Positions 13,188 to 16,966 of a DNA stretch of 64,000 nt are shown here, piece after piece (within the stretch, counting starts at the first letter, position 1; each line of letters begins with the position of its first letter). The notes under the pieces were generated by a model. The model saw only the letters and a program-made list of their open reading frames with translations. It had not been told where the DNA came from and searched no databases. Location: positions 54,700 through 118,699 of IMG/VR virus record IMGVR_UViG_2974665086_000001; one strand, given 5' to 3'. Made by a program: the position numbers and the translations under genes. Origin of the DNA: a virus. Taxonomy: Duplodnaviria > Heunggongvirae > Uroviricota > Caudoviricetes.

Positions 13188-14099
13188 ATGGAATACACAG
13201 AACTACATTTGCATACTCAGTATTCAATTCTAGATGGACTTTCTACTCCACGTGAATACTGTGAACGAGCCAAGGAACTTGGTATCGAAAATCTAGCTAT
13301 CACTGATCACAGTACAATGACTGGTCATATTGATATGCTAAAGGCTTGCATCGAGTTCAATATCAAAGCGATATTGGGTGTCGAAGCACACTACTCTGCA
13401 AGCACTGATGGTCGTTTCGACCGACGTTCAAAGGCAAAGCGTCAAGAGGGTGAAGATATGTATAATCACCTGATCTTGCTTGCCAAGAACGAAAATGGAC
13501 TTAAGAATCTGCACAAGATCGAAGAATCTGCCTGGACAGAGGGCTTCTACGGAAAGCCTCGCTGTGACTGGGAATTGCTGGATCAGTTTGGTGATGACCT
13601 TATTATCACCAGCGCGTGCGTGTCGGGGTTGATCGCGAGAAACCTAATCAACGACAGAGAAGACGAAGCACTCATGTGGTTGAATAAGTTTAAGGATCGC
13701 TTCGGTGAAGACTTTTACGTAGAGATTCAAGAGCACAACGAGCAGATCAGTAAGAACCTGAATCATCGTTTGCTTGATATCGCAGACAATAATAACGTCA
13801 AGACGATTATCACTAGTGACTGCCATTTTCACAGTCCAGAAGTACGTTGGATCGAAGAGGCTTTGCTTATTCTGAATACCAACCCAAAAAAGAATCCAGA
13901 TGCAGACCTAAGCAAGGCACGCAAAATGGACCTAATGGATCGTTTCAATTACCTGTACCCAGAACGTCAGATGACTTTCGAGCACATCGACGTTTACTTA
14001 CAGTCCGCAGAAACGTTGCACCAAAAGATGCAGAAGCAAGGTATTGATCGTACCGATATCTTCTCGAACACTATGGAGATTGCGAGCAAAATCGGATGA
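13188..14099 (+). CDS. dnaE: DNA polymerase III alpha (DnaE) N-terminal PHP domain, separate ORF
   Basis: LHLHTQYSILDGLSTP...ITDHSTMTGH PHP motifs; stop overlaps next ORF start (ATGA, different frame). Confidence 0.8.
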   Translation: MEYTELHLHTQYSILDGLSTPREYCERAKELGIENLAITDHSTMTGHIDMLKACIEFNIKAILGVEAHYSASTDGRFDRRSKAKRQEGEDMYNHLILLAKNENGLKNLHKIEESAWTEGFYGKPRCDWELLDQFGDDLIITSACVSGLIARNLINDREDEALMWLNKFKDRFGEDFYVEIQEHNEQISKNLNHRLLDIADNNNVKTIITSDCHFHSPEVRWIEEALLILNTNPKKNPDADLSKARKMDLMDRFNYLYPERQMTFEHIDVYLQSAETLHQKMQKQGIDRTDIFSNTMEIASKIG

Positions 14100-16966
14100 C
14101 AACTACAATTGTAAAGCAGGCTTATACACTCAAAGAGGGATTGGAAACTCTACCTAAGGGTAAGTTTGGCAAGACCAAAAAGACAGACGAAGAAATCAAT
14201 ATTGCAATCCGTCAACTGTGTGAAGCAGGATTGCGACGTATTGGTAAGTTCAACGACCAGGTTTATCAGGATCGTCTAGACGAAGAGCTTAAGGTTATCA
14301 TCGGTAAGAACTTTGCCGTGTACTTTATCATCCTGTGGGATATGATGAACTTCTGCCGTCACGAAGGTATTGCTACGGGCGCGGCGCGTGGTAGTGCTGG
14401 CGGTAGTCTAGTATCATACTTGCTGGAAATCACAGCTCTCGACCCCATTGAAGATGGTTTGCTATTCTGGCGCTTTCTTGATCCCAGTCGAGAAGAAGCA
14501 CCTGATATTGATATCGATATCGCTGATAAGGACCGCGCACGCGTTAAGCTTTACTTGGAAGAAGAATATGGTTCTGAGTTTGTTGCCTCGATCAGTACGT
14601 TTAACTACTACTCGTTCAAGTCTGCATTCAAGGGCGCTGCACGCGTTCTAGCTCTGCCTTATTCTGATGCCAATGACGCAGTTCGTAACGTAGAGACTTT
14701 TGAAGATGCAAAGCTAAGTCCCGCGTTTATTAAGGTAGTCAGGGAAGACCCAGCTATCTACAAGCTGACAAAGGCTCTGGAAGGCCGTATCAGTGGTGTA
14801 GGAATGCACGCCGCAGGTGTGGTGATCAGCAACGTTGCGCTGTCTGAAATCACAAGCCTAGAGTCTCGTGGCGCGGCGGGTGAAGAGTTCCGACAGAAGG
14901 TTGTCGGACTCGATAAGAAAATGGCAGAGCTGATCGGTCTAGTTAAGATCGACTTGCTAGGACTTAAAGCCCTATCTGTCATTGATGATGCTGAACAACT
15001 GATTAAGAAAAACCACGGACGTATCGTTAACTGGAAGAACCTGGAACGTAACGATAAGCTAGTGTTCGATATGCTCAGTCAGGGACATACTCTTGGTATC
15101 TTCCAGGCAGAGCAGAGTGCATCAACAAAGCTAATTAAAGATATGGGTATCCATAGCTTCACTGACCTGGTGGCTAGTAACGCACTGGTTCGTTCTGGTG
15201 CGTGGAATGCGTTCGGACCTGAGTTCGTTGCACGAAAGAAGGGTCACAAAAAGGCGAAGTCAATTCATCCTGATTGTGATTGGTTCTTGAAGGATACGCA
15301 GCAGCTAGCTTTGTACCAGGAACAGACAATGCTTATGTGTACTGAACTTGCTGGTATGTCGATGCAGGACGCTAACGCGGTGCGTAAGCTGACAGCCCGA
15401 AAAGAAGATAAGTCTACTCTGGCACCATACAAGGACAAGTTTATTGGTGGTGCATCACTTAAGATTAGTCTTAAGGAAGCAGAGAAGCTTTGGGAGAACA
15501 TCGAGATTACTTCTGAGTACCAGTTCAATAAGTGCTTGGTTGGCAATACAAAGGTTGAGGTTCGTTATCGTAATGAGTCCGAAGACTGGACTAATGCGTG
15601 CATGACAATGGAGCAACTCTATGTAATGTGGAACGAAGGTATTTTCCAGGTTCAGGTTCTCGGACCTGACAAGGTTAATGAGCGTGGTTGTGAAGATGAG
15701 CAATGGCACACTATTACTCACGTTACAGACCAGGGTGAAAAGCCTACGGTTCGTATCTGGGTTTCTAGTGGATCATATATTGATTCAACAAACGATCACC
15801 GCCACCGTTTGAGTCATAACTGGAAAGAAGCATATCGTATTCACCAGGGTGACCAGATATGGACTCGCGACGGTAAGCAGACAGTTGCAGGCCGTCGTCA
15901 GCTCGGGGTTCAGCAGGTGTATGATCTAGGTATTGAGACAGAGCATGAAGCATTTTATGCTAATAACTTTGTCACTCATAACAGTCACTCAGTAGGTTAC
16001 TCTCGTGTCAGTTATGCTATGGCTTGGTTGAAGTACCATTACCCAGCAGAGTTTATGGTAGCATTGCTTAACAACGAGAAGGATCAGGGTTCGGTATCAG
16101 ATTACTTGGCAGAATGCAAGCGACTTGGTATCAAGGTGGAGACACCTGACGTTAACTTGTCTGATATGCACTACAGTACGAAGAACAACAAAATTTATAT
16201 TGGGTTGTCTAGTATCAAGTATATCTCTGACAAGCTGGCAGAACGCATTATCAAGCAGCGTCCGTATAGCAGTTATGCGGATATGCGCGAGCGAATGATG
16301 GCTAAGGGTAGTGGATTAAGCAGTCGCGTTATTGCAAGTTTAAATGCGATTGGTGCTTCACGATTCGATGACCATCCGATTGACCCAGAAGAAATTAGAA
16401 ACAACATGTACGAATACTTAGGTATTCCTAGTTTCGATCAGGGTATGATTAACGCTGATATGCGTACGCGTATGATCCAACTGCCGGATTACGACGAGCG
16501 CGGTACACAGATGGTTGCTGCCATTGTAAAGGATATTGTATCTAAGAATGGTTGGACCCGTATTGAGATAATCGACGGTAATGGTTCTGCGTCATTTTTC
16601 GCAGAAGCAGATCATGGGTTGATTAAAGGCCATAAGTATATTATGCTTATTGCTAACAACAGTTTGATCGATGCAGTTGACCTTGCGAATTACAATAGTA
16701 ATCATCCGCTGGTTCGTTACTTGCGTGGACACAATGATACTGATTTCTGGTTGGTTGGTGCTAAGGCACGAGTCACAAAGAACAATAAGCATCTAGCCAC
16801 AATGGTATACAGTCAGATGGGTAGACTACGTAGCTGCATGGTATTCAGTACAAAGCTAGAATTAGCTCGAACTGTACCACGCGGAAGTAAGATTAGAATT
16901 GCTATCGGACAGATGAAAGATGGAACAGAATTTTTGGAGAATATTAAAGTAGATGAACGAGTTTGA
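14096..16966 (+). CDS. dnaE: DNA polymerase III alpha (DnaE) polymerase core, interrupted by a mini-intein
   Basis: [13 protein letters not shown].LGL, and [27 protein letters not shown] motifs of Pol III alpha; intein inserted inside the conserved FNK|SHS block. Confidence 0.85.
   Translation: [956 protein letters not shown]
15533..15982 (+). other. mini-intein (150 aa) within dnaE
   Basis: Begins with Cys ([10 protein letters not shown]...), ends ...[10 protein letters not shown] followed by Ser; removal restores the conserved DnaE motif FNKSHS. Confidence 0.7.

Follow-up and report, generated by a model that had tools for sequence, protein, structure and literature searches.

A probable class-1 mini-intein in the FNKSHS motif of the DNA polymerase III alpha subunit of Rhodococcus phage Trina

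Does the replicase gene of an actinobacteriophage carry a protein-splicing element within a conserved motif, and if so, what kind of element is it? The question is raised by a 64,000-nucleotide (nt) stretch of viral DNA (positions 54,700 to 118,699 of IMG/VR record IMGVR_UViG_2974665086_000001; hereafter the window), in which nt 13188–16966 match Rhodococcus phage Trina (MF668286 / NC_042040) at 100% identity, a window position being the MF668286 record position minus 54699. Trina is a virulent siphophage of 139 kb that belongs to cluster CE (2026 Rhodococcus-phage paper). Its gene SEA_TRINA_102 (gp102; 14096–16966, + strand) encodes 956 amino acids (aa), and its GenBank product name is only 'DNA polymerase III alpha subunit'. 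An original prediction, made from the letters of the window, had proposed a mini-intein at 14096–16966. This is the right open reading frame (ORF), but the range covers the whole of gp102, and the insert itself occupies nt 15533–15982. Our analysis indicates that these nucleotides very probably encode a contiguous class-1 mini-intein, that is, a HINT domain that lacks a homing endonuclease, which lies between Lys479 and Ser630 of gp102 and is expected to self-splice.

To begin with the insert and its boundaries, the predicted 150 aa with Cys first, His-Asn last and Ser following were found at gp102 aa 480–629 (CLVGNTKV...FVTHN, then SHS). Their removal regains the Pol III alpha motif FNKSHS...HYPAEF much as had been foreseen, with the difference that position +5 is Gly and not Ala. 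FNKSHS is contiguous in two aligned intein-free phage DnaEs and in bacterial DnaE family models; in the former, from Streptomyces phages Muntaha and Paradiddles, FNKSH is unbroken and the alignment gap corresponds to exactly C1...N150. When the spliced exteins were used as a tblastn query against 50,697 phage records, two-piece matches were seen only in the Rhodococcus phages Weasels2, Grayson, Peregrin, NiceHouse, Dorin and Francesca, while the next-best relatives, Streptomyces phages of ~130 kb, gave single unbroken matches. Likewise, a protein alignment revealed 150–168 extra residues in six Rhodococcus phages, bounded exactly by FNK/C and THN/SH (here and below a slash marks the junction). 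The NCBIfam DnaE models agree with this placement: their match stops at gp102 residue 480 and restarts past the insert. No Pfam domain scored above threshold over insert residues 480–629, and a six-frame scan of the window for other inteins found none but this one. The match of the insert to what is expected of an intein is far beyond chance. The parts of gp102 are listed below; A1 is an alignment of the phage inteins and A2 an alignment of 26 inteins.

14096..15532, + strand: N-extein, gp102 aa 1–479, 53.5 kDa, with the palm and fingers of Pol III alpha; its last residues are ...SEYQFNK (Pfam DNA_pol3_alpha 38–289 and DNA_pol3_finger 293–453; NCBIfam DnaE up to residue 480).
15533..15982, + strand: probable class-1 mini-intein, 150 aa (gp102 aa 480–629), 17.6 kDa, CLVGNTKV to FVTHN (exact alignment gap, PDB intein matches, AlphaFold2 model, Foldseek).
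15533..15535, + strand: Cys1 codon TGC, encoding the predicted nucleophile of the N-S acyl shift, in block A (no variation in A1 or A2).
15788..15799, + strand: block B, T86-N-D-H89 (TxxH), aligned with TKDH of the Npu DnaE intein block B (His89 invariant in the 26 inteins).
15920..15982, + strand: blocks F and G, Y130-D131...H138...F-Y-A-N-N-F-V-T-H149-N150 (in A2, D131 and N150 never vary and conservation of N144 and H149 is 90% or more; TIGR01443 above its cut-off).
15983..15985, + strand: Ser+1 codon (Ser630), the first C-extein residue and predicted transesterification nucleophile (every phage and bacterial allele of the site has SH directly after the intein).
15983..16966, + strand: C-extein, gp102 aa 630–956, 37.0 kDa, with the stop codon; it includes the HhH domain (Pfam HHH_6 678–755; NCBIfam PRK07373 597–754).

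All class-1 catalytic residues are thus present: C1, T86xxH89, D131, H149, N150 and S+1. Each of the intein blocks A, B, F and G could be located (Cys1; T86-N-D-H89; Y130-D131; H149-N150 plus Ser+1), and in A2 the residues C1, H89, D131 and N150 do not vary at all; the block B Thr is replaced by Ser in the Dorin intein. Besides Cys1, the Trina intein has Cys residues at positions 23 and 53. The proposed lack of a homing endonuclease was borne out as well, as there is no Pfam endonuclease match, no more than 41 residues lie between H89 and D131, and the structural model is a bare HINT domain.

Searches with the insert recovered inteins. A phmmer search of the PDB found an Npu DnaE intein (4kl6, E=4.8e-7), further Npu and Ssp DnaE inteins, the Spl DnaX mini-intein and the Mtu RecA intein. 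With a profile built from the inserts of the six phages, the matches were the Spl DnaX mini-intein (6.7e-9), Npu DnaE (2.6e-7) and VidaL (1.6e-6). TIGR01443, the model of the intein C-terminal region, scored 16.9 bits for a cut-off of 15.6. A word-indexed protein search with either the Trina intein or alignment A1 returned no match, and phmmer over 1.84 billion representative proteins returned 84. A family hidden Markov model (HMM) of the phage and metagenomic alleles gave 31 end-to-end matches (positions 1–145) in unrelated host proteins, among them DnaE, helicases, ATPases, terminases and ThyX. Every one of these starts with Cys, and 29 finish with His-Asn and have Cys, Ser or Thr as the next residue; the exceptions are one Ser-Asn and one Arg-Asn, and one match is without the terminal Asn.

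The structural comparison points the same way. An AlphaFold2 model computed with A2 has a predicted local distance difference test score (pLDDT) of 96.0 and a predicted template modelling score (pTM) of 0.89. It is compact and mostly beta with one helix, and in this model the HINT fold appears to take up all 150 aa. The best 50 Foldseek matches in the PDB were all inteins or HINT domains, with template modelling (TM) scores of 0.83 for VidaL, 0.75 for the Mtu RecA mini-intein, 0.74 for NpuDnaB and 0.73 for NpuDnaE.

Several points weigh against this interpretation. The Pfam model PF14890 (Intein_splicing) reached 20.8 bits for a cut-off of 35.8, and TIGR01445 (intein N-terminal region) 13.9 bits for a cut-off of 24.5. 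These sub-threshold scores reflect a sensitivity limit of the models and concern no defining biochemical feature; related mini-inteins in the metagenomic proteins P0001 and P0003 are likewise missed by curated models. The high confidence of the AlphaFold2 model depends on the 26 sequences of A2, which had themselves been chosen with an intein-family HMM, and a single-sequence AlphaFold model was uninformative (pLDDT 39). Furthermore, the block F His lies one position off that of Trina's closest relatives (EHEAF vs EPHAF; window 15944–15952, intein residues 138–140). Since the H-x-x-F register is present in other family inteins (HRNF, e.g. PHRNF), this shift is probably harmless. Finally, that the intein still splices is something we infer. 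It is the most likely state of affairs, because the intein is under purifying selection and the insert interrupts the FNKSHS motif of the replicase, an enzyme that Trina presumably cannot do without.

Could the insert be something other than a functional intein? We regard it as quite improbable that it is a degenerate, HINT-derived segment which no longer splices and which the polymerase tolerates permanently, or which performs N- or C-terminal cleavage only. Mini-inteins without an endonuclease are evolutionary dead ends, the curated intein models stay below threshold and the intein evolves faster than the exteins. However, the catalytic residues are all retained in at least 12 diverged alleles (38–73% identity), an omega (dN/dS) of ~0.25 signifies purifying selection, and the interrupted FNKSHS is contiguous in the two aligned intein-free phage DnaEs and in bacterial family models, and unchanged around the intein in at least 70 bacterial alleles.

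The fold also occurs in bacterial intein-like (BIL) domains and other HINT autoprocessing domains, and BIL and Hedgehog HINT domains are indeed among the Foldseek matches (6y75, 2lwy, 1at0). These rank below many true inteins, and the insert, which carries a C-terminal His-Asn followed by Ser+1, interrupts a conserved motif in an enzyme that has intein-free orthologues, whereas BIL domains are found in variable, often secreted proteins; an assignment to this group is therefore very improbable. Even less credit, practically none, can be given to a lineage-specific DnaE loop or accessory domain unrelated to inteins, the alternative that the original prediction had set against itself. The insert is present in all sampled close relatives of Trina and so looks fixed within the phage clade, but the alignment gap is exact, the boundaries fall precisely at C1 and HN/S, the fold is HINT with intein-only structural neighbours, and the sequence matches are to inteins, the family profile finding them in helicases, terminases, ThyX and other proteins.

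Taking the insert as a splicing-competent mini-intein, we can outline its processing from established class-1 intein chemistry. An N-S acyl shift at Cys1 would create a thioester at Lys(-1), which Ser+1 would attack in a transesterification to give a branched ester. Cyclisation of Asn150 to a succinimide, assisted by His149, would then free the 17.6-kDa intein, and an O-N shift would leave a normal Lys-Ser peptide bond. In this way the 108.1-kDa gp102 precursor would yield a 90.5-kDa polymerase core with FNKSHS restored, plus the 17.6-kDa intein. This corrects the annotation of the replicase: the predicted functional form of gp102 is the 90.5-kDa spliced product and not the 108-kDa translation.

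How long has the intein been in this lineage? For pairs with estimable dS, omega was ~0.22–0.26 for the intein and 0.03–0.12 for the exteins, values that indicate purifying selection on the intein. Over 12 genomes the identities of intein and exteins co-vary: extein/intein identity is 86/73% for NiceHouse and the IMG/VR locus L013, 71/66% for Weasels2 and Grayson, and ~55/45% for Trina and the others. We looked for a compositional signature of recent transfer and found none (GC 0.456 in the intein and 0.447 in the exteins). As the identities track each other and the GC contents are equal, the Trina intein would seem to be an old resident, inherited mostly vertically from an intein that had an endonuclease and had homed into the FNK/S site in the past.

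One pair departs from joint divergence. Grayson (L004) and Peregrin (L005) have exteins that are 98–99% identical (dS 0.31) and inteins that are only ~65–66% identical (dN 0.27, dS 1.09). The divergent tract in Grayson (L004 ~2913–3278) opens past CLAEDT (block A), ~18 nt from the start of the intein, and closes at QTYD (block F), and both intein ends are as well conserved as the exteins. It looks as if the intein core had been replaced by recombination within the intein's own conserved blocks. A wider reading, which we hold to be rather doubtful, is that Trina-type mini-inteins are not inert relics: phages that infect the same cell may still swap them by recombination via their conserved terminal blocks, and their retention in all sampled members of the phage clade may reflect some use, e.g. 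conditional splicing that gates maturation of the replicase.

Around Trina dnaE, no free-standing homing endonuclease that might mobilise the mini-intein was found in the neighbouring hypothetical ORFs with Pfam and PHROG, and no nuclease gene stands directly upstream. An endonuclease VII gene (gp76, L006 168–641) is located directly upstream of dnaE in Dorin and overlaps its start; in intein-free Muntaha the corresponding place is taken by a gene for an HNH endonuclease (gp57, L007 258–554). The replication module surrounding gp102 in Trina comprises a helicase, a primase, SSB, MazG, RecA and resolvases.

The gene immediately before gp102 supplies the part of DnaE that gp102 itself lacks:

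13188..14099, + strand: gp101 (SEA_TRINA_101), the PHP-domain part of DnaE, 303 aa (Pfam PHP E=6.5e-43; phrog_405 positions 42–315).

Trina DnaE is thus divided between a PHP-domain ORF (303 aa) and a polymerase-core ORF (956 aa), the second in the -1 frame, with the stop codon of gp101 overlapping the start codon of gp102 in an ATGA. On the phrog_405 profile the two are exactly contiguous (42–315 for gp101, 316–1045 for gp102). The same breakpoint, ...KIG followed by the stop, is common to Weasels2, Grayson and Peregrin, whose second ORF starts with TTG, lies in the +1 frame and overlaps the first by 8 nt; the metagenomic relatives P0001, P0002 and P0004 also start at this breakpoint. NiceHouse, Dorin, P0003 and the Streptomyces phages have a single fused DnaE gene. 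A programmed frameshift fusing gp101 and gp102 was considered. No canonical X XXY YYZ heptamer is present in 14040–14100, and the frames differ between Trina and the Weasels2 group; a genuine two-gene arrangement is therefore likelier, and the PHP domain and the core are probably made from separate, translationally coupled genes rather than from a frameshift fusion.

As to the records, the GenBank annotations of Trina and of the related intein-bearing Rhodococcus phages contain no intein feature, and the 2026 paper describing Trina makes no mention of inteins. A 2025 survey of actinobacteriophage inteins gives Pol III alpha as a new host (bioRxiv 10.1101/2025.01.02.630785); in the supplementary text of that survey the only phage named with a Pol III alpha intein is Wojtek, and there is no entry of any kind for Trina, NiceHouse, Weasels2, Grayson or Peregrin. 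Judged by the records and papers checked, the Trina intein is a previously unannotated, divergent member of a well-known intein class, at a site, FNK/S, that DnaE inteins widely use. The novelty suggested by the original prediction was accordingly too high, since FNK/S holds an intein in at least 70 bacterial DnaE genes.

The Trina-type clade is effectively invisible to routine annotation. Since the lineage falls below the Pfam thresholds and is absent from the survey's supplementary text, censuses of actinophage inteins may be undercounts; surveys based on thresholds overlook a whole clade of them. The general understanding of inteins is unaltered by the Trina element, and a specialist would not be surprised by it. 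What it does bring is a compact lineage of 150-aa Cys1/Ser+1 mini-inteins, with ~12 natural variants, for the protein-engineering pool, together with modest extras, namely the blind spot of the curated models, the core swap between Grayson and Peregrin, and the separately encoded PHP domain.

How, then, does the Trina intein compare with DnaE inteins already known? Its nearest counterparts are the mini-inteins of NiceHouse, Weasels2, Grayson, Peregrin, Dorin/Francesca, the metagenomic proteins P0001–P0004 and three alleles on IMG/VR contigs (L010, L011 and L013), which share its site, measure 141–168 aa and have no endonuclease. The alleles of the Rhodococcus-phage type are 38–50% identical to the Trina intein and co-diverge with their exteins, and their differences in length lie in the N-terminal subdomain. 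P0001, a relative of Trina gp102, has in addition a second intein at LGF/C...THN/CTFQEQ (aa ~407–555).

In bacteria the same bond is occupied by larger relatives. A scan for the codon pattern FNK-C[LVIMF]xG[DN]T in one genome per bacterial or archaeal species gave at least 120 loci. At least 70 of these are complete DnaE genes of the form ...YGFNK/C...(H/A)N/SH.AAY... (the slash within the brackets denoting alternatives), and at least 14 more are interrupted by contig ends. Among the matches listed, carriers include Deinococcus, Chloroflexota, Gemmatimonadota, phyla of the candidate phyla radiation (CPR), Rokubacteria, Polyangiaceae, Nakamurella, Pleurocapsa and others; the inteins span 137–464 aa with a mode of ~427–435, and the phage-family HMM matched 70 of 70. 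These bacterial elements are like Trina's in host protein, peptide bond, class 1 chemistry, Cys1, His-Asn and Ser+1. They differ in that they are mostly 420–460 aa long with a LAGLIDADG endonuclease, some having HNH, whereas Trina's has 150 aa and no endonuclease. Sampled alleles carry LAGLIDADG in Deinococcus arenicola (L042) and a member of the Gemmatimonadaceae (L024) and HNH in Nakamurella (L025), while one in a Bacillota metagenome-assembled genome (L084) is a mini-intein. Identity between the Trina intein and the bacterial ones is 20–28%, and PF14890, for which Trina's is below the cut-off, was passed by all four of the sampled bacterial inteins. The metagenomic DnaEs P0005, P0012, P0020, P0082 and P0083 also have an intein at the FNK/S bond, that of P0083 with HNH.

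The naturally split DnaE inteins of cyanobacteria (Ssp, Npu) resemble Trina's in host protein, class-1 chemistry and conserved motif, and provide its best single-sequence match in the PDB (4kl6); the structural similarity to NpuDnaE is TM 0.73. They are split, trans-splicing and followed by Cys+1, whereas Trina's is contiguous in one ORF at K/S and followed by Ser+1. The C-extein of the cyanobacterial split intein begins Cys-Phe-Asn (PMC3585056), which places its site (..AEY/CFNKSH) four residues upstream of K/S. Another actinobacteriophage case is gp72 of Gordonia phage Wojtek (L009 21326–25366), whose DnaE intein lies in the same motif two residues upstream of Trina's (YSF/C...HHN/NIAH). It differs in having ~266 aa, an HNH endonuclease and Asn at +1, and this last residue suggests that either the junction is unusual or canonical splicing would be impossible.

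Several integration points for inteins in DnaE exist in the literature, and another one, FG/SYGFNK, is used in P0005 and P0010. The P0005 DnaE (2788 aa) contains six intein-like stretches, two of them only six extein residues apart (FG/...HN/SYGFNK/...HN/SH). The residues of Pol III alpha around FNKSHS thus form an insertion hotspot with at least four neighbouring points, G/SYGFNK, Y/CFNK, F/N and K/S, the last of which is the one occupied in Trina.

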